Of a DNA stretch of 40,790 nt, positions 1,928-40,381 are shown piece by piece. This DNA comes from a virus. The translations under genes were made by a program, and so were the position numbers. Within the stretch, counting starts at the first letter, position 1. Every line of letters starts with the position of its first letter. The notes under the pieces were generated by a model. That model saw only the letters and a list, made by a program, of their open reading frames with translations, had not been told where the DNA came from and made no database searches. The stretch lies in UHGV virus genome UHGV-0115898. One strand, 5' to 3'.

Positions 1928-2520
1928 AAATCATCCACCTTAGGCGCAGCTGAGACAGCAACATTCCAGAACTCAGAAAACATATTGTATGCACCAGATA
2001 GATTGGAAGTGGCATACCCTCCAAGCTCACTTCTAATCTGAACGGCTCTCATCATTTCCGGGGTTAACTCCTTCGGCACCATAACCCAACCATCCGGAAT
2101 TACCGGAGAGTTGCCGGGTTCTTTAATGTGCAAGCGAGGCTCACCATCTTTTGGCTCAGGCCACTGGCGCTCCATGTTGATCTTCAATTTATCTTCCATA
2201 GCAGCGGTAATTTCAGCATCGCTGATGCCAGCACGGCGCTGTGCATCCCACAACAGAAACTGCATATCAGCCCACTCGCTAAGATCGTCTGGTTCGGCTG
2301 CGGCTTCCAGTGCCTCTTTTGAGAGATGTTTCAGCGGACCAATGGGGCCAACGCAGCCAAATGTGGAGTCAGACCATTTGGCATGCTCGTGGCGAATCTG
2401 TTCGCGTTGCAGCGATGCCAGAGCAATTCGTGCCAGTTCCATTTGTTCGCCACGGGTAAGTCCGTTTTCAAGCGGATTTTTAATGAACAATTCAATACGT
2501 TCTTTGGTAATAGTGGTCAT
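1924..2520 (-). CDS. Phage DUF550/DUF551-type protein (putative dATP/dGTP pyrophosphohydrolase), 198 aa
   Basis: Motif block DLSEWADMQFLLWDAQRRAGISDAEI...KLKINMERQWPEPKDG resembles the MazG-like DUF550 fold; C-terminal VIPDGWVMVPKELTPEMM resembles DUF551; ATGA overlap with downstream gene. Confidence 0.5.
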   Translation of the reverse strand: MTTITKERIELFIKNPLENGLTRGEQMELARIALASLQREQIRHEHAKWSDSTFGCVGPIGPLKHLSKEALEAAAEPDDLSEWADMQFLLWDAQRRAGISDAEITAAMEDKLKINMERQWPEPKDGEPRLHIKEPGNSPVIPDGWVMVPKELTPEMMRAVQIRSELGGYATSNLSGAYNMFSEFWNVAVSAAPKVDDL

Positions 2521-2530
2521 GTGTTACTCC

Positions 2531-2794
2531 TTAACCCGCAGTGCTTTCAACTGATGAGGAGAACAAAATCTTTTCATCAAACCCTGCATTCATATCATGA
2601 ACAGCAACACACCAATCCATCGACGAACGATTATCAAGAGCCTCCATGATTTCATCCATGCGGCGCAGGTCATACAGGTAAATGCTTTTATCGCCAATGG
2701 TGTAAAAACCAATTTTTTTCGGTGACGGGCAGCGATCAAGAACGTTCTGTAATTCGCTCAACCATGCCTGTTCCTTTTTTGTCAAAGTTGCCAT
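2531..2794 (-). CDS. Hypothetical early-left protein (about 87 aa from ATG at 2794; ORF-track start at 2824 is TTG)
   Basis: ORF in operon orientation; ATG at 2792-2794 lies 1 nt after the upstream gene stop. Confidence 0.45.
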   Translation of the reverse strand: MATLTKKEQAWLSELQNVLDRCPSPKKIGFYTIGDKSIYLYDLRRMDEIMEALDNRSSMDWCVAVHDMNAGFDEKILFSSSVESTAG

Positions 2795-2795
2795 A

Positions 2796-3488
2796 TCACT
2801 CTCCTTTGATGCGAATGCCAGCAAGCCAGTTTCTTATGCCGATATATTCAGCGTTCCTGAAACCGCTTTTTACATATATAAATGGCAAGCGAAGATTGTG
2901 ACCATTGGCTGCCAGGTAGTATTTACAACCCTGTTCGGTGAAACAGCAGGTAACGAATTCATCAATATCTTTCACAGCAACGCGCCGCCATTTTTCTGGT
3001 GGCTCTCGAAAGTTTTCGTGAAGTAGTTCGAGACGACGACTTTGGCGTTTATTGGCTTCATTACCATCTTCATCAACCCAGACAATCCGGTCATAGTCAT
3101 AATCAGCATCAACAACGATTTCGCGCTTTTGATACACACAAAACATAGGGTCTGACGTTATTCGATTATCCTGTGTTCGAATATTTTCACCGATGATGCC
3201 AAACGAATCTGGTGCAGCTTTTTTCTCCAGCTCTGCAATGCGTTTGCTTTGAGCTTCCAGTTCATCAAGAAGCGCAAGCACGGTAGCCGGATTAGCCTTG
3301 GCAACAAAATCCCGGACTGACTTACAATCAATCTCCGCAATGGGTTGATACGATGTGTAGCCATGCTGTCTTGTATAACTACCGTGACGAATAACGAAAA
3401 AATCACCATTTATTTTTTTAGCCTGCCACTTATCTTCACCGGCTTTCTCTGCCGCTTCACGCAGTGCCTGATAATCAATCTTGCTCAC
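2796..3488 (-). CDS. Hypothetical phage protein, Ead/Ea22-like (230 aa), GTG start with AGGAGG Shine-Dalgarno
   Basis: Long ORF; start codon is GTG at 3486-3488 preceded by AGGAGGCAACCA on the minus strand; central coiled-coil-like AQSKRIAELEKKA. Confidence 0.55.
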   Translation of the reverse strand: MSKIDYQALREAAEKAGEDKWQAKKINGDFFVIRHGSYTRQHGYTSYQPIAEIDCKSVRDFVAKANPATVLALLDELEAQSKRIAELEKKAAPDSFGIIGENIRTQDNRITSDPMFCVYQKREIVVDADYDYDRIVWVDEDGNEANKRQSRRLELLHENFREPPEKWRRVAVKDIDEFVTCCFTEQGCKYYLAANGHNLRLPFIYVKSGFRNAEYIGIRNWLAGIRIKGE

Positions 3489-3729
3489 TGGTTGCCTCCT
3501 GCTTTTCTGCCTTCAACACCATGCGAGAACCATCATCCAGCTCCCACACTATCTCACCACCTTCAGCCATGACCAGTTGCCACACCAATTGAGCAGCCTC
3601 ATTGGTAACATCACGACCTGGATCATTGCCAACGCGCATACGTCCACCTTCAACATCGCGCATTTTTGCCAGCATGATAGTTTTTGATAGCGGTGAAAAA
3701 CCAAGCTGTAGTCGTGCTGAATTACTCAC
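3475..3729 (-). CDS. Hypothetical small protein (84 aa), GTG start with identical AGGAGGCAACCA leader
   Basis: ORF with GTGA overlap to upstream gene stop; the same 17-nt start module as the gene at 3488. Confidence 0.45.
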   Translation of the reverse strand: MSNSARLQLGFSPLSKTIMLAKMRDVEGGRMRVGNDPGRDVTNEAAQLVWQLVMAEGGEIVWELDDGSRMVLKAEKQEATSEQD

Positions 3730-4226
3730 TGGTTGCCTCCTTTGCGAAGCTGGTCGGCGAACAAACGTACACCAGACGCTTCACTGCGTAGTAACTTAAC
3801 GGCATCATCAAAACCACCTCGTTCTGCGTCGTCTGCTCCGTTGTCGAGGTTATCTGCGTACATCTCTACCCCCTGCGCCCGTACTTCAGCCAGGAAAGCA
3901 TCGGTGGCTGGGGTGTCTGATTGCAGAGACTTTGCGCGATAGTCATTCCACCCTCTTGCATACATGGGATTAACTTGCACTCCATCTTTTACGCAATATG
4001 CCTGCCCTCCACGGTTGATAACCTTGATTTCGCCCATAGCGCCAGACTTCAGCCCCGCATTCTCCGCTGCCAGCGCCGCGCACTTAGCCTCCGCTTCAGC
4101 AAATTTACGCACCAGATATTCAGCGTTTGTTTCGTTAACCTTTAAATCTCGGGGGATGCATTTACCTTTCAGGAATCCATCCATCTCAATTAGTGACATT
4201 TGTTTCATTTCTTCCCACTCCGCCAC
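3726..4226 (-). CDS. Hypothetical early-left protein (166 aa; start ambiguous between GTG at 4226 and ATG at 4208)
   Basis: ORF in operon orientation; acidic C-terminal half; no recognisable domain. Confidence 0.5.
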
Positions 4227-4365
4227 ATTGCATTCAGATATTTGTTGTCATTAACAGAGCCGAAACTATTTCTCTTAAGCAATTCCTCTCTCGATGGCAT
4301 TGGCTTTACGCGTTGGCGAATAATCATTTCTGCCGGAAGAATGCCGGGATTGTATGCAAGTCCTC

Positions 4366-4689
4366 TCATGATTTACTCTCAACGAACTGGTCAATAGCCA
4401 TGCTAAGTGACATACCTAAAGTTTCGATATGCTGCTGAATATCCTGTAGCGTCTGCGCCTGAGATAACAGGATTTCACGGTTGCATAATTCTTTAACCAG
4501 ATGCTCAAACTTGCTGTAATAACCGATACGGCTTAGTGTTTCTTTCCCTGCATTCTCGCCTTCTTTGATAATTCCTCTTTCACTAAGAATCAGATCGTGT
4601 TTGGTTCCGGTAATAACGTATTTTCCGAGGTCGATGTTTAGCTTCATTGTTTTCATGGTAAATTCCTCAGTCATTACTGATAGCGCCAT
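4366..4689 (-). CDS. Hypothetical protein (107 aa)
   Basis: ORF with ATG at 4687-4689, overlapping the upstream gene end by 23 nt. Confidence 0.5.
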
Positions 4690-4963
4690 AGCGTGAGCGG
4701 TAATTACGCAGGCGCGGGTCGATATATTCAGGGAAGTGGGTATATGTGGCTTTGCGGAATGGTCGGATTGATGTTTCGTTTATTCGGTCTTTTTCCTGTT
4801 TTTCTGCGAGTTGTATATCGCGTCGGCACTTCCGTTCTTCTTTTGTTTCTGGTGGCAGAGCAAGAAACGCGTCGAGATTATTCTTGATATTTTCCAGCAC
4901 CTCCGATACGGAATTGCCGGAACAGCGGCGCGGGTCATCCGCACCATACAGAGGCGCTGGCAT
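4667..4963 (-). CDS. Hypothetical basic protein (98 aa)
   Basis: ATG at 4961-4963 preceded by AGGAG at 6-nt spacing on the minus strand. Confidence 0.5.
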   Translation of the reverse strand: MPAPLYGADDPRRCSGNSVSEVLENIKNNLDAFLALPPETKEERKCRRDIQLAEKQEKDRINETSIRPFRKATYTHFPEYIDPRLRNYRSRYGAISND

Positions 4964-4979
4964 GGTTTTCTCCTGTTGA

Positions 4980-5528
4980 TTATTTAGCTAACTTTTTCCA
5001 GATCGCTGAAACGTATTTGGCTTGGTGAATGGCATCATCAAGCGCGTTGTGGCGAGTTCCTTTGAATGGCATATCTCGCTTAGGGTCGAATCCTATTACC
5101 TTCCCAAGTTCGACGATTGTTCTTACGTCGCGGTCATTCCACCACTGCCACGGAACTGGCTGCCCTGTCAGCGAATAACTGTTTCGGAGAATAACGCAGT
5201 CAAATGATGCTCCATTCCCCCAAACCTGAACGAATTTGTGGTTAGCGTTCTTTATGATGAATTCAGATAACCATGAAAGAGCCGTTGAAAGCTCCTGAGT
5301 GTTGCTGGTTAGCGATTTTCTGGCTTCTTCACTCTGTTCCAGCCACCATAAAATCGTTGAAGCGTCAGGACGCGCTCGATATCGCATTGATGATTCAAGC
5401 GAGATATTTACCGAGAACTCTTCTCCTGTTTCTCCGGTATTCGGGTCAAAGAATACCGACCCAATAGAAATAACTGGCGCGTATGGCCCGTTGCCCATTG
5501 TTTCAAGGTCAACCATCAAGTGATTCAT
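4980..5528 (-). CDS. DnaQ-like (DEDDh) 3'-5' exonuclease (182 aa)
   Basis: Exo I motif MVDLETMG near the N-terminus and Exo III motif HNALDDA near the C-terminus; size typical of phage stand-alone proofreading-type exonucleases. Confidence 0.8.
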   Translation of the reverse strand: MNHLMVDLETMGNGPYAPVISIGSVFFDPNTGETGEEFSVNISLESSMRYRARPDASTILWWLEQSEEARKSLTSNTQELSTALSWLSEFIIKNANHKFVQVWGNGASFDCVILRNSYSLTGQPVPWQWWNDRDVRTIVELGKVIGFDPKRDMPFKGTRHNALDDAIHQAKYVSAIWKKLAK

Positions 5529-5536
5529 GTAAGTCC

Positions 5537-6052
5537 TTAAATTGCGTGAATAGCGTGACGAGGGAAGGGGAGAGTTACTGGTGCAAAGGGGATATCGTCG
5601 TCAAAATCCATAGGTGGTTCGCTGTGATTTCCCTGCTGCTGAGGTTGCTGTCTTTGTTGCTGACCATTATTTCGCTGAGGTGAAGACTGTTCATTGCCTC
5701 CTTGCTTGCCACCAAGCATTTGCATGGTTCCACCAACGCCCACGATGACTTCGGTAGTGAACCGATCCTGTCCGCTTTGATCCTGCCATTTTCTTGTCCG
5801 CAATTTGCCTTCAAGATAAACCTCAGATCCTTTTCGCAGATATTCGCTGGCAATTTCTGCCAGTTTCCCGCTCATTACCACGCGGTGCCACTCCGTCTGC
5901 TCCTTTTGCTCTCCAGTTTTCTTATCACGCCATTGTTCTGACGTAGCAACGGTAAGGTTTGCAAATGCCGTTCCTGATGGTGAATATCTGATTTCTGGAT
6001 CATGCCCAAGGCGACCAATAATGATCACCTTATTTACGCCTCTGCTTGCCAT
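5537..6052 (-). CDS. ssb: Single-stranded DNA-binding protein (171 aa) with Gly/Gln-rich linker and DFDDDIPF acidic tip followed by a 15-aa extension
   Basis: OB-fold N-terminus [23 protein letters not shown]..., [10 protein letters not shown] linker, [11 protein letters not shown] motif; ORF continues [15 protein letters not shown] before the stop at 5537-5539. Confidence 0.9.
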
Positions 6053-31110: not shown

Positions 31111-33113
31111 TGAAAGTAACTGCAAACGGTAAGACATTTACCTTTCCTGATGGTACGAGCACCGAAGATATTGGCACCGCCATTGATGAGTATTTTGCTG
31201 GTCAGTCAGCACCAACACAACAAGGTGTTCAGCAATCGCCAGCAGACAACTCACTTGCATCAGGATATGCACAGCTTGCCACTCAGCAGAAGGAAGGACT
31301 AGATCGCTCTGCTGAGCAAGGGGCTGTTTTAGGTGCTGCAATGCGCGATGCCGTTACCGGTGAAAGCCGAATGACACCAGAAATGGAGAGACTGCAAAAT
31401 GTTGGGTCTGCTCCAGAGCTTAATAGCTTAAGCACTGATGCGCTGCGTGCTGGATTGGGGCAGCTATTTGGTTCCGACGCTTCACAGGAGAAAATACTGC
31501 AAAGTATTGGCGGGAAAATCCGGAAGGATGAGAAGGGAAATTCCATAGTCACCCTTCCTTCAGGGGAATATGCACTTAACAAGCCTGGTTTGTCACCGCA
31601 GGATATAACGTCATTCTTGGCAAATGCTCTTGCATTCACTCCAGCAGGTAGAGCTGCGTCTGTTGTAGGTGCAACACTAAAATCAGGCGCTACTGATTTA
31701 GCTTTACAGGGTGCCACTAAGATCGCTGGCGGTGAGAATGTTAATCCAGTTCAAACTGCAATTTCTGCTGGTCTTGGTGGGGTACTGAAGGGTGTAGAAA
31801 ACACCGCAAGCGCAGTGTCTCGTTCTGCTATGGGTAAGATTGCTCCTGAAAAAAAAGCTCAGATTGACTTTGCCAAGCAGAACAACTTGCCACTGATGAC
31901 AACAGATCTTGTGGAACCGGGAACAAATATTGGTAAGCAAGCACGAGCTATGGCTGAGCGAATCCCAATAGCCGGAACAGGTGGGATAAGAAATGCACAG
32001 CAAAAGGCCAGGGAAGATTTAGTTAGAACATTTAGCGATAATGTTGGTGGAATATCTGACGCACAACTTTACCAATCAGCTACTCGTGGTCAGCAGCAAT
32101 TTATTCAGGCTGCTGGCAAGCGGTACGACAGGATCATCAGTTTGATGGGGGATACTCCTGTTGACATCACTGGAACAGTGAAAGCAATTGATGAGCAGAT
32201 TTCCAAGTTAACTCGCCCAGGAGTATCGCAAGATCGCTCAGCTGTTTCTGTCCTTCAACAGTTTAGAAATGACATCACCAGCGGTCCAAATAACCTGCAA
32301 TTAGCTAGAGAAAACCGTACAAACTTACGTAAGCGCTTTATGGCAGCACCTGACGAGGTCGATAGAGATACGCTGGAGAAAGCTGCGCAGTCTGTTTATA
32401 ACGCATACACAACAGACATGAAAAAAGCGGTTGGCGCAAAACTAGGTGCGAAGGAAGCGCAAAACATGTCGCGTGTTGATCGTTCTTGGGCAAAGTTCAA
32501 CGACATGATGAGCAATACACGTGTCCAAAAAGCTATTCAGAGTGGTAAAACAACGCCAGAAGATGTCACTAAACTAGTATTCAGCCAAAGCCCAGCGGAA
32601 AGGGCGCAACTTTATCGATTGCTTGATGATAGTGGGCGTCAAAATGCTAGAGCAGCACTTGTTCAGCGTGCAATGGATAAGGCGACAAGCGATTCAGGAA
32701 AGCTTAGCGTTGAGAAGTTTATTAATGAAATGAAAAGGAATCGGAAGCAGGCTGAGACGTTCTTCAGAGGAGAGCATGGGAAACAGCTTGATGGGATAAT
32801 GAAATATCTTGATTCCACTAGACAGGCAGCTACTGCTGCCGCAAGCCCACTAACAGGGCAAATGGTAGCTGGTCCAGCAGCGCTGATAACAGCTCTTGCG
32901 TCTGTTACAAATCCAATGTTTGCAAAAGTTGCGGCAGTTGGAGCTGGTATCGGTATGGCTGGCAGGGGCTATGAGTCACGCGCGATGAGGAACGCATTAC
33001 TAAAGTTAGCAAACACGCCAAAAGGAAGTACTGCTTATGATAGAGCGATCAGACGGGTATCTGAAACTCTTACACCTCTAATTCAGGCTTCAAGTGAGAA
33101 AGCCCAGCAGTAA
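31107..33113 (+). CDS. Ejection protein, P22 gp16-like (668 aa)
   Basis: Gene order; large Ala/Gln-rich protein; overlapping start with the previous gene. Confidence 0.8.
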
Positions 33114-33121
33114 AAAGTTGG

Positions 33122-33514
33122 TTAGCGGTTGATGGTTGCTTTTTTCGGGTCATACCATCTCGGCCATTCTTTCAGGAATGGGAATGAGTCGGGAGCGTGG
33201 TTCTTTTTGTACGATTTAAGCAGCCTTAACCGCTCTATCGCACACTCATAAACCTCTTGTTGCCCTGTAGTCATCTCGGTCCATGAAAGGTGATCCATTG
33301 ATAAGACAACGTTTTCAGCTTCTTTTATGAGGGCGTTTTTATTTCTCACCGCAGCAGCATGGCTGACAGAGCAATCCTGCCATATTCTTAAAAGCCAAAT
33401 AGCTAAGCAGATAAAAAAAATGGTAGATAGCGATATATACACACCAACCTCTTTAGTTTTTCTAGTTACTTTGTCACGATAGGATATGCGAAATGATAAA
33501 ACTAAATTGCGCAC
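33122..33514 (-). CDS. Hypothetical membrane protein (130 aa, GTG start, one N-terminal TM helix) in AT-rich insertion; positional analogue of P22 sieA
   Basis: TM segment VGVYISLSTIFFICLAIWLLRIW after a basic N-terminus; AT-rich codon usage by eye; start is GTG with weak Shine-Dalgarno. Confidence 0.45.
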   Translation of the reverse strand: MRNLVLSFRISYRDKVTRKTKEVGVYISLSTIFFICLAIWLLRIWQDCSVSHAAAVRNKNALIKEAENVVLSMDHLSWTEMTTGQQEVYECAIERLRLLKSYKKNHAPDSFPFLKEWPRWYDPKKATINR

Positions 33515-33702
33515 ATGATAACTCAGTAATAATTGTTAATGAAAACATGATCACCTATATTGCACAAGGCGAAACAGGAAGCATAATCTGGTTTCATGAG
33601 TGTGATCACGTTTGGGTAAATCAAAGTCAAGAGGAAATACTTGAAATTATCAAAAATAACTATCTAAACGTTGCACACGACTCATCTATCCATTTTTCAT
33701 AA
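33493..33702 (+). CDS. Possible small ORF (69 aa) overlapping both flanking minus-strand genes
   Basis: ATG with AGGA 8 nt upstream; overlaps the 130-aa gene start by 22 nt and the 193-aa gene end by 43 nt, so at most one of the overlapping models is likely to be fully correct. Confidence 0.25.
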   Translation: MIKLNCAHDNSVIIVNENMITYIAQGETGSIIWFHECDHVWVNQSQEEILEIIKNNYLNVAHDSSIHFS

Positions 33703-34241
33703 AATTGTATACCGAGATAGGCAAGAACAGATGGATGTATATCAACAAGCTTTTCGCCAAGATGTTCTGTTGGAGGTGGATAATCTTTGCCTTGGTTTCT
33801 TACGGTTATAGGCATAGTTGTTGCTGGATGAAACTCAACTATCATAGGGTCGCCTTCGTATTTTGCTATTTTCCCTGTTGAATCAATGATTAACTCTTTA
33901 ATATAATGGCTTCTTGCTCCCGGAAATGCCCCAAGAGTAGTATAAGGAGGTTCAAGTTTTGAGATTTCCATAGTGGAATGATGATCAGCATTTCTTGCTT
34001 GGTGAAGGTAAGCAAGTGTTTTGTCTGTTTTTCTAAGCATGAACTTTTGGTTGAAGTGGCTGCTAAATTTTCCACTAACCGGCTTTGTTGCACAGAGCAA
34101 CTTACTGAAAGACTTTTCTATATGCCCAAGACATTCTCGCCAGTGCATTTCAAAATCATCATGGTTTGTAGATGATTTCATCTGCTCTAGGCACTTTTTA
34201 GCTGCGATGATTTCTTTTTTTGCTGGGTTGTAATCGATCAT
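33660..34241 (-). CDS. Hypothetical protein (193 aa) translationally coupled to mnt
   Basis: ATG at 34239-34241 overlaps the mnt stop (ATGA) with AAGGA 6 nt upstream; AT-rich; no recognisable domain. Confidence 0.6.
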   Translation of the reverse strand: MIDYNPAKKEIIAAKKCLEQMKSSTNHDDFEMHWRECLGHIEKSFSKLLCATKPVSGKFSSHFNQKFMLRKTDKTLAYLHQARNADHHSTMEISKLEPPYTTLGAFPGARSHYIKELIIDSTGKIAKYEGDPMIVEFHPATTMPITVRNQGKDYPPPTEHLGEKLVDIHPSVLAYLGIQFYEKWIDESCATFR

Positions 34242-34514: not shown

Positions 34515-34566
34515 TTGACATGATAGAAGCACTCTACTATATTCTCAATAGGTCCACCGTGGACCT
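34515..34566. promoter_or_regulatory. immI control region: Pant (TTGACA - 17 nt - TATATT), Arc operator (atgatagaagcactctactat) and Mnt operator palindrome (AGGTCCACCGTGGACCT)
   Basis: Perfect 17-bp palindrome at 34550-34566; Arc operator-like sequence at 34520-34540; consensus -35 at 34515-34520. Confidence 0.8.
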
Positions 34567-34744: not shown

Positions 34745-34812
34745 AGTTGAAGCCCCAACTGCGGGAACAGTCAGGGCTTCTGTTGTCAGTAAATTCGTGG
34801 AGAAAAACCAAC

Positions 34813-35815: not shown

Positions 35816-37972
35816 ATGACAGACATTACAGCCAATGTGATCGTATCGATGCCTTCGCAACTCTTCACTATGGCTCGTTCTTTTAAAGCCGTAGCCAATG
35901 GCAAAATTTATATCGGTAAAATTGACACTGACCCGGTAAACCCTGAAAACCAGATTCAGGTTTATGTGGAGAACGAAGACGGCTCTCACGTTCCTGTTTC
36001 GCAACCAATCATCATTAACGCTGCTGGTTACCCGGTATATAACGGACAGATTGCCAAGTTCGTAACTGTGCAAGGCCATTCTATGGCTGTTTATGATGCA
36101 TACGGTGTGCAGCAGTTCTATTTTCCTAATGTGCTGAAGTATGACCCGGATCAGTTTTCTGCAGAATGGCTTGCCAAGATGTCTGCGCCTGATTCTTATG
36201 CATTATTTGGTACATTCTCATCAATAGCAGATCTACGAGCATTTACTGCATACTCATCAGTTAAGGAAAATGGAAGAGTCTATGTTGATTCTTATCACCT
36301 TGGAGCTGGTTATGGCGGAGGATATTTCCGCTGGAATTCAACTAGCACTGATACTGATGACGGTGGCTATACCATTAACCCAACTGGCAATACTGGAACA
36401 GGACGCTGGAAGCGAGAGATATCCTCTGCGTATGTCGCAAGGACGGTGAGTCCGTTGGAGTTTGGGGCAAAAATTAACGATAGTACTTTCGACTGCGCGC
36501 CAGCTATCAATGCGGCTATTTTATATTTGAATCCTTATCTTGATTCCTCATATGATTCTCATCAGGGTGGAGATATTGTGTTGCCAGCAGGGCAGTTTTA
36601 TATTAATGACACTATATACGGCTCTCCCAATGTCAGGGTGCTGGGAACTGGCGGCACTCCAGGGTTCAGATATTCTAGGTCTGGGTGTTCTGTTATTGTC
36701 GCAATGCCCACAATGGATCTCATGAAAATTATGTATGATACCGCCCCGTGGTTGACAGACGGCACATCCAGATACACTAATACAAACGAGATGGTTTACG
36801 GCAGAACGGAAAGTCAGGGATACTATGGGACCTACATTGAGAACATAGTTTTTGTTGGAAATGCAGATCAACAGTGCGGAGTACGTATCTGGCGAGTTCC
36901 ATGCTCCACTCTCAAAGGTGTTGCAGTCTACTCCTGTAAAGTAAGTTTCTGGGTAAATGGTTCGTGGGATGTGATGCTTGATAATTGCTTCTCATATGGC
37001 GCGAAGTACGCCACAATTTTGCCTTATCAAATTACATCGCTTCGCATAGTAGGCGGCTATTATACAGGAAATACTGCACAACTTTATTCTATGGGGACTG
37101 AACAGTGGTTTCATCGAGCGATAGATGAAACTAACAAGCCAAACATTGCTTATGTAACTACTTTCATGTATGCATATAACAGTTTTGATATAAATCTGTA
37201 TGGCGTAACAATAGAAGGGTACAACAGAGAGTTTGCTCTTTTTTATTGCGGCAATGTTAATATGTTTGGTGGGTATACAGAATGGATTGGAGTACCTGCA
37301 AGCGAGACAGGGCATCGTGTTTTTGTGCATGGTGTTGCCTCAGAGTTTTATTCAACAGGGACATACTTTAATCACGACATTAAAGATCTGGCGGTGCAGT
37401 CAGGGAATGTTTTTGACACTACTTCAGGAGAATACCTCCCATCTGAAAGATCACGAGTGATAATTGAAAATCCAAGAGTGGTAACAAAATTCCAGAATCT
37501 TACTAAAGATTTAGGATATGGCTCCTACAATATTGTCATAAAAAACCAACACCCTATCACAGATAGCTTATCGACTACACTTTCAGCGCAGAGGCTTTTT
37601 ACAGTTCAATTTGTTGGATTGCTAGACCAGTATACAATGCGAACTCCTGCTGTAACTGCAAATGGTACAGTGAGCTTTAGTATCCAGATTGGAAATATTG
37701 CAGATGGAGGTGAGTATAGCGTTAGGCTTTTGATGAGAAACACCGCATCCACTGTACAGCAGGATTTAAGATTTACAGTGTTGGTAGGAACAACAACAAC
37801 TGTTACTGGCTACCAGGGACGCTCGAAGGCTGGGACCACATTAATACCAGCACCCACAGCAACATTCACTGGTAGCACATTAACTCTTACTTTCACAGGT
37901 AATTCAGGTTATTATTCATTCTTCAGAATGAAGTGCGTGCCTGTAGAAGATCAACATATTTATACCTATTGA
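35816..37972 (+). CDS. Tailspike protein: conserved P22-family N-terminal head-binding domain, distinct beta-helix receptor-binding domain (718 aa)
   Basis: First ~115 aa ([11 protein letters not shown]...[34 protein letters not shown]...[13 protein letters not shown]...NVLKYDPDQ) match the P22/Sf6/HK620 tailspike N-termini; rest is Gly/Tyr/Thr-rich. Confidence 0.9.
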
Positions 37973-37993
37973 TGGATTTTAGGCCGGGCAACC

Positions 37994-38027
37994 CCTGCCA
38001 ATAGACTTTATTGGCAGGATTTTTTAT
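37994..38027 (+). terminator. Intrinsic terminator after tailspike, overlapping the 3' end of convergent gtrC
   Basis: CCTGCCAATA-gactt-TATTGGCAGG hairpin followed by ATTTTTTAT. Confidence 0.75.
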
Positions 38028-39462
38028 CAAAATCAACAATCAAAATGCTATCCTTGATATAGGAATTTAGCCATTGCCCCTGAAAGGATAGGTTACCTTC
38101 ACATTTATGTGAAATGTAATTTTTAGCCTTGTTTGCTGGCATGTATGTATTCTTTATCCCATTAAATGACATGTACGCACTTCCCCAATACCAGTTCCAG
38201 AAGTAATCTGTGACTGAATAGTTTATCAAAGGAAAGTTTAATGCTGCATTTTTTACAGCTTCGGATCTTGGTGCTGTGCCGGTAAACACAATGCTAACAT
38301 TATCACTACCAGCGTCGCGAATGGATTGCATAATTTCAGAAAGAACTACTTTATTTATCCTTTCCTGAGCCTTCAAAGCATTTCCGTATACATACATTAA
38401 AATCATAGAATACAATACGGGTATTAATGTAATTGATGTTACGTATCTATGTTCTTTAAAGCAATAATATAGCAATGTACTCATGAGGACATAAAAAACT
38501 CCAACCGACATGTATAAGTGAACTCCTCCCAATGGGTTGGCGAGAACCAGCAATGCCCCCATAGTCATTGGCATAGCGATTGCTGTTGCGAGTATCGCTC
38601 CAGTTATAACGTTAAATACTTTCCAGTTTAGGCCTTTACATTTAACGTATTTGTAACTCAGAAACGCCGTCATAATAATGCAAGCTAAAGCTGACAGGAG
38701 TAATAATTCACCACCGACAACCCTGTAAAAATTTGTAGAAGCAAAATCGTAATACTTTAAGCTGTTATTCTTTAGTGCCCCTAATATATCATTTGATATT
38801 CTTGGGTGATTAGATGAATAATGCCCGCTAAAAGTTATGGGTAATATGAATTTCACGTATATCATACCACCTACTAAAACCTGCATTATACGTAATGCAA
38901 CCCTTTTAAGTATTAACTGCGGGTCAGTAAATCTGGCCATGTTAACTATTACTTCACATATTAATAAAATCGCAACGACATTAATGACTGCCTGATAAGT
39001 GCCAAGCACTATCACTACAAATGCGGTGCCTATTATTAATTCATGAACCAGTCTTTTGCACTTAATTGCAAAGAGAGCAAATGCAGATGCAATGGAGAAA
39101 CTGAAAGTTAAAACATCAAACCGATAAGAGAACATTGATATAATAGCTGGATTCGCCATGAATGCCAGAGGTATAATAAAGCTCCATTTTCCCCCATCAA
39201 GAAACCTCTTTCTGTAACATGCAAAAGATATTGCAAGCAGCACAGAAGCAAGAATGATTGGTAGAGGTGCAAGATCGACGATTCTGGAGCTAAGATTGAG
39301 AACTGACATTACTATATCAGCTACAGGCCTCCCGTCCACACCCCATTTAGTATAACCAACAGTCGTTCGCCCAATATCATCAACATAAAATTGGTTTGCT
39401 AGGATAATTGGCAATATAAATATAAAAATAACATACGAGTAACGTTTTGAGTTGTTAATCAT
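38008..39462 (-). CDS. gtrC: GtrC-type serotype-specific O-antigen glucosyltransferase, polytopic membrane protein (484 aa)
   Basis: Multiple hydrophobic TM segments, AT-rich, located 3' of gtrA/gtrB with overlapping start. Confidence 0.8.
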
Positions 39463-40381
39463 TTTTATTCTTACCCTTTAAAATATATCTTGGACGCTGT
39501 TTAACCTCGATATAAATCCTTCCGATGTATTCACCAAGTACCCCTATACCGATCAACTGAATCCCGCCCAAGAAAAGTATCGATACCAGCAAAGATGGAT
39601 AACCACGAACAGCATTCCCAAATACAAGCGTGTCGATAATCATCCACGTTCCGTACAGGAATGCCACTCCGGCAACAAACAGGCCGATATAGGTCCACAT
39701 ACGCAGGGGTAATGTTGAGAAACTTGTGATTCCTTCAAGTGCTAAATTCCACAACTTCCACCCATTGAATTTTGAATCACCTGCAACCCGTTCTGCGCGT
39801 GCGTATTCCACGACATCTGTCTTTCCGCCAACCCAACTAAGAATGCCTTTCATGAAAAGATTGCGTTCTGGCAGGAGCTTAATATTCTCCACTACCTCGC
39901 GAGACATTAGCCTGAAATCTCCAACATTTTCCTCGATCTGCGGGTTGCTGATTTTGTTATGCAGCTTATAGAACCACTCGGCGGTTTTCCTCTTCAGTCT
40001 GCCATCAGTTGAGCGGTCAGATCGTTTAGCAAGCACCATGTCAGCACCTGCTAGCCATTTCTCAATCAGGTGAGGAATAACTTCTATTGGATCCTGTAAG
40101 TCAACGTCAATCGGGATAATCGCCTCACCAGTTGCGTGATCAAGACCAGCGAACAGCGCAGGTTCTTTACCAAAGTTTCTGGTGAATGACAAAGGAACAA
40201 CAAGCGGATCGGAAACAGCCAGCGCGTTTATAATTGATTCAGTAGCGTCTATGCTACCGTCATTAATAAAGACTATCTCGATTTCATGTTGCTGAAGCCC
40301 TTCAAATTCCCGAGCCGTTTTATAAAAAATCGGTATTGTGTCTTCTTCGTTGAAGACGGGAACGACCAGAGAAATTTTCAT
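39455..40381 (-). CDS. gtrB: GtrB bactoprenol glucosyltransferase (GT2 family), 308 aa
   Basis: GT2 motifs ([22 protein letters not shown]) with two C-terminal TM helices. Confidence 0.92.

Follow-up and report, generated by a model that had tools for sequence, protein, structure and literature searches.

Two independently exchanged cargo genes between mnt and gene 16 of a P22-like prophage: a candidate HEPN-type solo defence protein and a candidate membrane exclusion factor

The virus genome UHGV-0115898 (40,790 nucleotides, the whole of which is referred to here as the window) is a complete genome of the size of a P22-like prophage. Its plus-strand ejection genes, which are gp20-like and gp16-like and end at 33113, are followed on the minus strand by a small open reading frame (ORF), an ORF of 193 amino acids (aa) and mnt, and then on the plus strand by arc, ant and the tailspike gene. 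What do the two minus-strand ORFs between the ejection genes and mnt do for the prophage, and do they act together? An earlier note, made from the DNA letters alone, had described them as one AT-rich two-gene insertion, translationally coupled to mnt and a candidate exclusion or defence module expressed in the lysogen. Comparison of the locus across related prophages and analysis of the two protein families point instead to two independent prophage-expressed cargo cassettes, of which slot 1 would hold a latent solo HEPN-type RNase with a role in defence and slot 2 a membrane exclusion factor; taken as a whole, this explanation is given slightly less than an even chance. As the note had it, the function most plausibly assigned to both genes, each of which lies in the variable interval between gene 16 and mnt, is one in defence or exclusion.

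Regarding the distribution of the two genes, a survey of 5,426 complete Escherichia coli genomes for both of them recovered the 193-aa gene in 21 genomes at an identity of at least 99%, overlapping an Arc-family gene in all 21, and the small gene in 57 genomes, and the two were present together in two genomes only (CP082824 and CP200274, 98% identity), that is in 2/21 and 2/57 of the respective carriers. The other 19 prophages with the 193-aa gene have other content in the second slot, and those inspected carry an annotated SieA of 188 aa. Alignment of the window with the sieA-carrying prophages revealed identity through the 193-aa gene, the 217-bp spacer, the Shine-Dalgarno sequence and the GTG codon, followed by divergence from the second codon onwards; the homology boundary is at window position 33439 (GTG+1), and the joint of the swap lies exactly at the GTG start codon. 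Having been exchanged for sieA at a shared start codon, the small gene inherits the expression signals of sieA. The small gene also occurs with other cargo behind mnt, namely with genes for 115 and 169 aa in phage N7 (L018 4024-4864) and strain GB089 (L019 3524-4364) and with genes for 121 and 110 aa in another P22-like contig (L026 2196-2886), and each of these sets begins with a gene that overlaps the mnt stop. The cargo set of N7 and GB089 and that of the other contig are unrelated, the 115- and 121-aa proteins sharing only a CPxC zinc-ribbon-like patch (E 8e-4), and searches of these cargo proteins against Pfam and PADLOC gave no match. Relatives of the 193-aa gene and of the small gene each occur without the other in other phage types. 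Thus, because cargo assorts independently and is joined at the mnt stop and at the sieA start, the interval between mnt and gene 16 is a two-slot cargo hotspot, with slot 1 at the mnt stop and slot 2 at the sieA start, and the two-gene insertion of the earlier note, as a unit, is incorrect since its genes assort independently.

Regarding the 193-aa protein of slot 1, a word-indexed search found only seven relatives, and an exhaustive profile search found at least 1,772 cluster representatives (clusters at 50% identity) at E <= 0.001; nearly all of the best 150 of the 1,772 are stand-alone proteins of about 170-220 aa, and nearly all of these 150 have R-x4-H near the same position. Conservation was computed on an alignment of 127 diverse members with a mean column identity of 28%, all 127 of which match PHROG 23516, a family listed as of unknown function. 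The only invariant columns are W34, Y78, R83, H88 and P157 (127/127 for both R83 and H88), while R70, D73, A82 and H160 are near-invariant. Position 84, directly after the arginine, is N in 69 members, D in 30, H in 14 and G in 13, position 86 is D or E, and the residue at E42, within helix 2, is acidic or polar in most members (E in 73, N in 21 and D in 11 of the 127).

The AlphaFold2 model of the protein (predicted local distance difference test, pLDDT, 96.6; predicted template modelling score, pTM, 0.89) has helices at residues 5-23, 27-51 and 60-72/74-88, a beta-rich part at 94-154 followed by the final helix (170-191), and the modelled core is a four-helix up-down bundle, a feature of HEPN membership. 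In the DSSP assignment, helix 74-88 ends on H88, and the insert then leads to the last helix. HEPN proteins have their Rx4-6H motif at the end of helix 3, a conserved acidic residue in helix 2 and, in some cases, inserts such as the beta-hairpin directly after the motif in Csx1 (PMC3710099); R83-x4-H88 of the present family is at exactly the motif position given there. The commonest recurrent match to PADLOC models, although weak, is the reverse transcriptase (RT)-associated HEPN model (RTasHEPN; 6/127 members, best E 0.0019, 16 bits), which in the member P0049 spans residues 76-101, IYLTQARNAFHHGLG..., i.e. the Rx4H motif itself, and the PADLOC model 'Effector/Endonuclease' recurs weakly in 3/127 members. 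On the strength of the alignment and the predicted fold, the 193-aa protein is probably a member of the HEPN superfamily, and the statement in the earlier note that it resembled nothing recognisable was too pessimistic given its HEPN-like fold and invariant Rx4H.

With known HEPN RNases (HepT of HepT/MntA, 7ae2 and 5yep; Csm6; DARNA/PD-T7-3; ApeA; AbiV) the protein has in common the up-down four-helix bundle, the Rx4H at the end of helix 3 with N, D or H after the arginine, and the acidic residue in helix 2. In contrast to these enzymes, it has no match to the Pfam HEPN clan, only the weak local one to RTasHEPN, it is encoded without an MNT, antitoxin or CARF partner, and it has a large beta insert between helices 3 and 4 as well as the additional conserved residues W34, Y78, P157 and H160. 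The insert, which carries the invariant P157 and the near-invariant H160, is a possible sensor or regulatory domain.

The closest functional parallel is HepS of the Salmonella prophage Gifsy-1, an otherwise inactive, constitutively made and partner-less HEPN protein; binding of a phage tail-tip protein activates it, whereupon it cleaves tRNA anticodon loops and brings about abortive infection (Nature 2026, PMC13043305). Like HepS, the 193-aa protein works up to about 200 aa in length, has no partner and is encoded at an accessory site of a temperate phage, with a predicted HEPN-type helical core and Rx4H (R83-H88, compared with R100-H105 in HepS), and constitutive production in the lysogen combined with latency, as in HepS, would be expected of it. 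Unlike HepS, it has a beta domain of about 80 residues inserted after the motif. The family profile did not match HepS among the PDB chains, the presence of HepS entries in the searched copy being unconfirmed, and a search of the LT2 Gifsy-1 record for hepS gave no ORF with R100/H105.

Several results weigh against the assignment to HEPN. Pfam and NCBIfam gave only scattered chance matches for the 193-aa protein and each of the 127 relatives, a profile search of all PDB sequences with the family likewise gave chance matches only, Foldseek of the model against the PDB returned nothing below E = 1, and PADLOC 2.0 had no model for the 193-aa protein or for the small membrane protein; furthermore, residues outside the HEPN signature (W34, Y78, R70, D73, P157 and H160) are highly conserved, and a different chemistry is possible. 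The longer members of the family (P0084, P0090, P0126 and others) have no informative fused domains.

The genomic contexts of the relatives bear on the same question. Four relatives are in opposite-strand moron positions: at the tailspike end of another prophage, adjoining host genes (P0004), at the end of a P2-like prophage (P0184), beside lambdoid tail-fibre genes (P0183) and adjoining a tape-measure gene (P0003). In the contig JGI 3300047160 (P0182) the family gene (1437-2027) is directly upstream of a 1,114-aa NERD-NACHT (STAND-type) gene (2255-5599), a setting that suggests a defence island. Other relatives are next to HigBA and a transposase or near a DDE transposase, and some members are found in ordinary chromosomal neighbourhoods. 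The small membrane gene was absent from all contexts of relatives that were inspected. Judged from these sequences, the family is distributed in the way that a moron or defence gene acting on its own would be.

A somewhat less likely reading is that the 193-aa protein, rather than being a nuclease or an effector of defence, is a helical bundle with another role of benefit to the prophage, for instance as a regulator, in lysogenic conversion, in counter-defence or as a metal-binding enzyme. On this reading its conserved R/H/D/Y/H residues would be used for binding or for some other catalysis. Such a role would agree with the failure of all curated HEPN and defence profiles to match, with conserved residues outside the HEPN signature (R70, D73, Y78, P157, H160) and with those members that have ordinary chromosomal neighbours. 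It sits less well with an Rx4H motif that makes up two of the five invariant residues, has N, D or H after the arginine and is located exactly at the end of helix 3, with the recurrent local match of a HEPN model over that motif, and with the frequency of moron and defence-island contexts.

Regarding the relation of the 193-aa gene to mnt, the ORF, the ATGA overlap of its start with the mnt stop and the good Shine-Dalgarno sequence ahead of it, all reported in the earlier note, were borne out by the ORF table and the sequence (Table 1). The 193-aa gene is translationally coupled to mnt, and from this coupling it is expected to be expressed from Pmnt in lysogens, where Mnt is active. The spacer behind the gene is identical in the sieA-carrying sibling prophages; a consensus scan found a promoter-like site in it (TTATCA-17-TATCAT, 33521-33493, minus strand), a scan for a canonical minus-strand terminator in the spacer after the 193-aa gene found none, and its predicted RNA fold is unremarkable (z = -0.56). 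The interval is indeed, as had been noted, the one in which P22 carries sieA: in the P22 annotation, the equivalent interval contains a separately promoted sieA, the terminator of mnt, and orf59a as part of the mnt transcript. The mnt-orf59a unit of P22 thus resembles slot 1 in having cargo directly after mnt on the Pmnt transcript, ahead of a separately promoted sieA slot, but differs in that the cargo in the window overlaps the mnt stop and that a canonical terminator after it was not found; orf59a (59 aa) and the 193-aa protein are unrelated.

The same arrangement could be read as a toxin-antitoxin-like or addiction pair, in which Mnt, or a Mnt-like ribbon-helix-helix (RHH) protein, neutralises or tightly autoregulates a toxic nuclease and so stabilises the prophage. 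In the classic type II layout, too, an RHH gene comes first and overlaps its partner by 4 nt, and the window Mnt matches a FitA-like RHH antitoxin model in addition to Pfam Arc (2.8e-27) and Repressor_Mnt (3.4e-11). Moreover, a relative with 62% identity (P0002; L025 1328-2157) is also preceded, with a 4-nt overlap and in a different-looking context, by a gene for an 83-aa RHH protein, which is Mnt-like, has a C-terminal coiled coil and is only 23% identical to the window Mnt. The contig of this relative does not look P22-like; by eye, one neighbour is similar to the C-terminal end of UmuC-type polymerases, and another, of 210 aa, has hydrophobic stretches. However, the gene calls of P0003, P0004, P0183, P0184, P0005, P0172 and P0182, whose neighbours were not individually typed, include no same-strand RHH gene directly upstream, and mnt is present without the 193-aa gene in P22 and 49 phage records; a tblastn search with the 193-aa protein against 50,697 phage records gave no match. 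Unrelated cargo is also joined to the mnt stop, which makes the overlap a property of the slot and not of the pair of mnt and the 193-aa gene. Because most contexts have no partner and other cargo is found at the mnt stop, a toxin-antitoxin relationship is rated low.

Regarding the small gene of slot 2, the 130-aa version beginning at GTG 33514 that was listed in the earlier note (33122-33514) was rejected as a mechanical ORF that is too long and includes non-coding leader. The actual gene encodes 106 aa from GTG 33442, as indicated by the lengths of its homologues (103-106 aa, with the N-terminus M/V-YISLS), by the match to PHROG 10450, which starts at residue 25 of the 130-aa ORF, by the annotation of the gene in phage N7 and RefSeq at 321 nt, and by the seemingly conserved upstream residues 'KTKEVG', which are the ribosome-binding site AAAGAGG in translation. 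A related observation concerns the sibling prophages, in which the first 24 codons of the 188-aa RefSeq 'SieA' correspond to the non-coding leader DNA of the small gene (window 33439-33514; L003 4001-4076). Counted from the shared GTG, the sibling SieA gene is 495 nt, exactly the length of P22 sieA, and the N-terminal extension in RefSeq may therefore be an annotation artefact.

The sole hydrophobic segment of the small protein comprises residues 2-21 (33380-33439), with a Kyte-Doolittle 19-residue maximum of 2.05 at residue 3, and is followed by a basic C-terminal domain of about 85 residues with many invariant positions; across homologues down to 64% identity, 25 columns are invariant. Charge is absent N-terminal to the transmembrane (TM) helix and Arg/Lys residues follow it, a pattern which suggests that the C-terminal domain is cytoplasmic. 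Searches of the small protein against Pfam, NCBIfam and PADLOC gave no match. A true homologue is present in the lambdoid phage mEp043, where the 98-aa protein mEp043_049 (L020 2989-3285; hhalign probability 98.2%, E 3.6e-14) is encoded 15 bp downstream of cI on the same strand. The position directly after cI is that of rexAB in lambda. The mEp043 protein shares with the small protein an N-terminal TM helix ahead of a conserved domain, as well as a lysogen-expressed position, but it is only 31-35% identical, belongs to another phage type and operon, and is uncharacterised. The two lysogen-expressed positions in two phage types argue for a role of the small protein at the inner membrane in the prophage state.

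The small protein is similar to P22 SieA (mBio 2024, PMC10883804) in its slot beside gene 16 (between genes 16 and 9), in the start codon and leader shared with sieA in the siblings, in being an inner-membrane protein and in its orientation on the minus strand, convergent with gene 16. Against a common function are its size and topology, with 106 aa and one TM helix as opposed to about 164 aa in SieA (a polytopic protein of about 160-200 aa being expected), and the BLASTP comparison with the 188-aa SieA of one sibling prophage, which gave no alignment at E <= 100; the translated sibling SieA has several hydrophobic stretches, as judged by eye. The argument for its function is also one from position and is circumstantial. 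From these sequence features, a membrane-level superinfection-exclusion factor is the leading candidate role for the small protein and is put forward tentatively.

With the small protein described, the proposal of the earlier note that a cytoplasmic and a membrane protein cooperate can be weighed. A joint exclusion or abortive-infection system of the two genes, gained in one AT-rich insertion, would account for two adjacent genes on the same strand between which a canonical terminator was not found, both of them below the mean GC of the window, and for their joint presence in two E. coli prophages at 98% identity. Nevertheless, the distribution of the genes largely refutes it and leaves it very improbable: co-occurrence is rare at 2/21 and 2/57, 19 prophages have other content in the second slot (sieA in those inspected), three other sets of cargo accompany the small gene, relatives of each gene are found alone in other phage types, and the recombination joint falls exactly between the genes at the start codon of the small gene. 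The AT-richness itself holds for the region, where the GC fraction of 33122-34241 is 0.388 compared with 0.472 for the window (standard deviation 0.037 among equal-sized windows; within the lowest 4.2% of windows), but not to the same extent for its parts: the 193-aa gene (0.387) and the spacer are low in GC and account for the dip, and the small gene, at 0.43, is only mildly AT-rich. That either ORF, or both, should be a non-functional remnant or a chance reading frame in AT-rich filler DNA is scarcely credible, for even if neither has an annotated function and the 130-aa ORF as drawn includes non-coding leader, the 193-aa family has at least 1,772 clusters with full-length conservation and a model pLDDT of 96.6, and the small protein has its 25 invariant columns and the 31%-identical mEp043 homologue.

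Gene structure, the coupling to mnt, independent assortment, the cassette swap at the start codon, the size of the family, its modelled fold, the conservation of the motif and the moron contexts in prophages are observations. Beyond them, for the explanation by two independent cassettes, with a latent HEPN-type RNase in slot 1 and an exclusion factor in slot 2, we infer the following scheme, which covers how the genes are expressed, the RNase activity of the 193-aa protein and what triggers it, the phenotype in defence, and what the small protein does and how it lies in the membrane. In P22 lysogens, Mnt keeps Pant repressed and Pmnt running, and on infection Arc turns off both. The 193-aa protein would likewise be produced from Pmnt in lysogens only and would be shut down by Arc during a fresh infection. 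Constitutively present but latent as an RNase, and probably forming oligomers as other HEPN enzymes do, it would be switched on by some component of an infecting phage, perhaps via the beta insert as candidate sensor or gate; once active, it would cleave tRNA or mRNA and bring the infection to an abortive end, in the manner of HepS of Gifsy-1. The 106-aa protein, anchored in the inner membrane by its one N-terminal helix and replacing sieA through the same leader, ribosome-binding site and start codon, would serve as an alternative membrane-level superinfection-exclusion factor with a C-terminal domain that is probably cytoplasmic.

Extended to the whole family, the proposal is that PHROG 23516 may represent an unrecognised, widespread solo HEPN-type abortive-infection nuclease with a beta sensor after Rx4H, which in P22-like prophages is wired to the Mnt/Arc circuit; this generalisation is advanced with some reserve. 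Wiring to Mnt/Arc, and hence production in lysogens only, would provide a ready-made way to avoid self-targeting. Solo HEPN defences in prophages and SieA-type exclusion are known kinds of system, while the sequence families described here are unannotated and the insert architecture is unusual; in literature searches, neither the RefSeq accessions nor the PHROG numbers of the two protein families led to a paper. If the HEPN reading is true, about 1,800 clusters that annotation pipelines all label 'hypothetical' would form a new single-gene phage-defence family of unusual insert architecture, and the prophage would be a convenient E. coli model with native single-copy expression from the well-understood Mnt/Arc circuit. 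For short-tailed phages, SieA is to our knowledge the one blocker of injection described so far, and the small membrane protein is a candidate replacement that is not homologous to it. The joints at the mnt stop and the sieA start provide a nucleotide-resolution view of lysogen cargo exchange in P22-like prophages, and the two-slot hotspot, with at least four cargo sets seen here, could be mined for more exclusion or defence genes. The sets of 115 + 169 aa and 121 + 110 aa are further candidate lysogen-expressed defence or exclusion genes.

Table 1. Positions of the features of the mnt-gene 16 interval and the adjoining immI region in the window.
Feature	Position	Strand	Remarks
Small membrane gene, 106 aa, PHROG 10450, sieA slot	33122-33442	minus	single-pass inner-membrane protein (predicted)
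Shine-Dalgarno sequence AAAGAGG (33454-33448) and GTG start (33442-33440)	33440-33454	minus	common to the small gene and sibling sieA; recombination joint
AT-rich spacer, 217 bp, GC 0.327	33443-33659	minus	moves together with the 193-aa gene; includes the 5' leader of the next slot
193-aa gene (cytoplasmic protein, PHROG 23516; predicted HEPN-like bundle with inserted beta domain)	33660-34241	minus	candidate latent RNase, candidate solo defence effector
Beta-rich insert, residues 89-169 (about 80 residues), between helix 3 and the last helix	33735-33977	minus	holds the YxPPxxHLG motif
Rx4H motif codons, R83-N-A-D-H-H88, at the C-terminal end of helix 3	33978-33995	minus	alignment and model
ATGA overlap of the 193-aa gene ATG (34241-34239) and the mnt stop TGA (34240-34238)	34238-34241	minus	sequence and ORF table
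Shine-Dalgarno sequence AAGGA, 6 nt before the 193-aa gene ATG, within the end of mnt	34252-34248	minus	read in the sequence
mnt repressor gene, 84 aa	34238-34492	minus	first gene of the operon bearing the 193-aa cargo gene
Pant-like promoter	34515-34543	plus	consensus scan, 11/12 match; predicted
Pmnt-like promoter	34548-34520	minus	consensus scan, 10/12 match; predicted
sar antisense RNA	34745-34812	minus	Rfam RF00262, 91 bits vs gathering score 43

Regarding the immI region, the mnt/arc region of P22 and the window have 89% DNA identity, and the mnt gene, by its matches, is genuine. The predicted Pant- and Pmnt-like sites are divergent and overlapping (34515-34548), in a placement that parallels the annotated Pant and Pmnt promoters and operators of P22. 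The ant gene has both P22_AR domains (N- and C-terminal), and the tailspike gene has its head-binding domain. Judged by these sequence features, the immI region next to the cargo genes is authentic and intact.

A plus-strand ORF of 69 aa at 33493-33702 was rejected as a gene, having no family support and running in antisense orientation through the leader region, across the spacer and into the 3' end of the 193-aa gene; it had no Pfam, NCBIfam or PADLOC match beyond weak chance ones and is probably spurious. In the sibling prophage of E. coli GB089, an HNH endonuclease gene (L019 5973-6431) is located on the opposite strand between ant and tailspike and is absent from the window. The sole other region of the window that is equally AT-rich (37000-39500, GC 0.34-0.40) comprises the C-terminal part of the tailspike gene and a minus-strand ORF at 38008-39462, and this ORF (484 aa), with the ORFs of 308 aa and 120 aa that come after it, is by size and order a candidate gtrCBA O-antigen modification operon.

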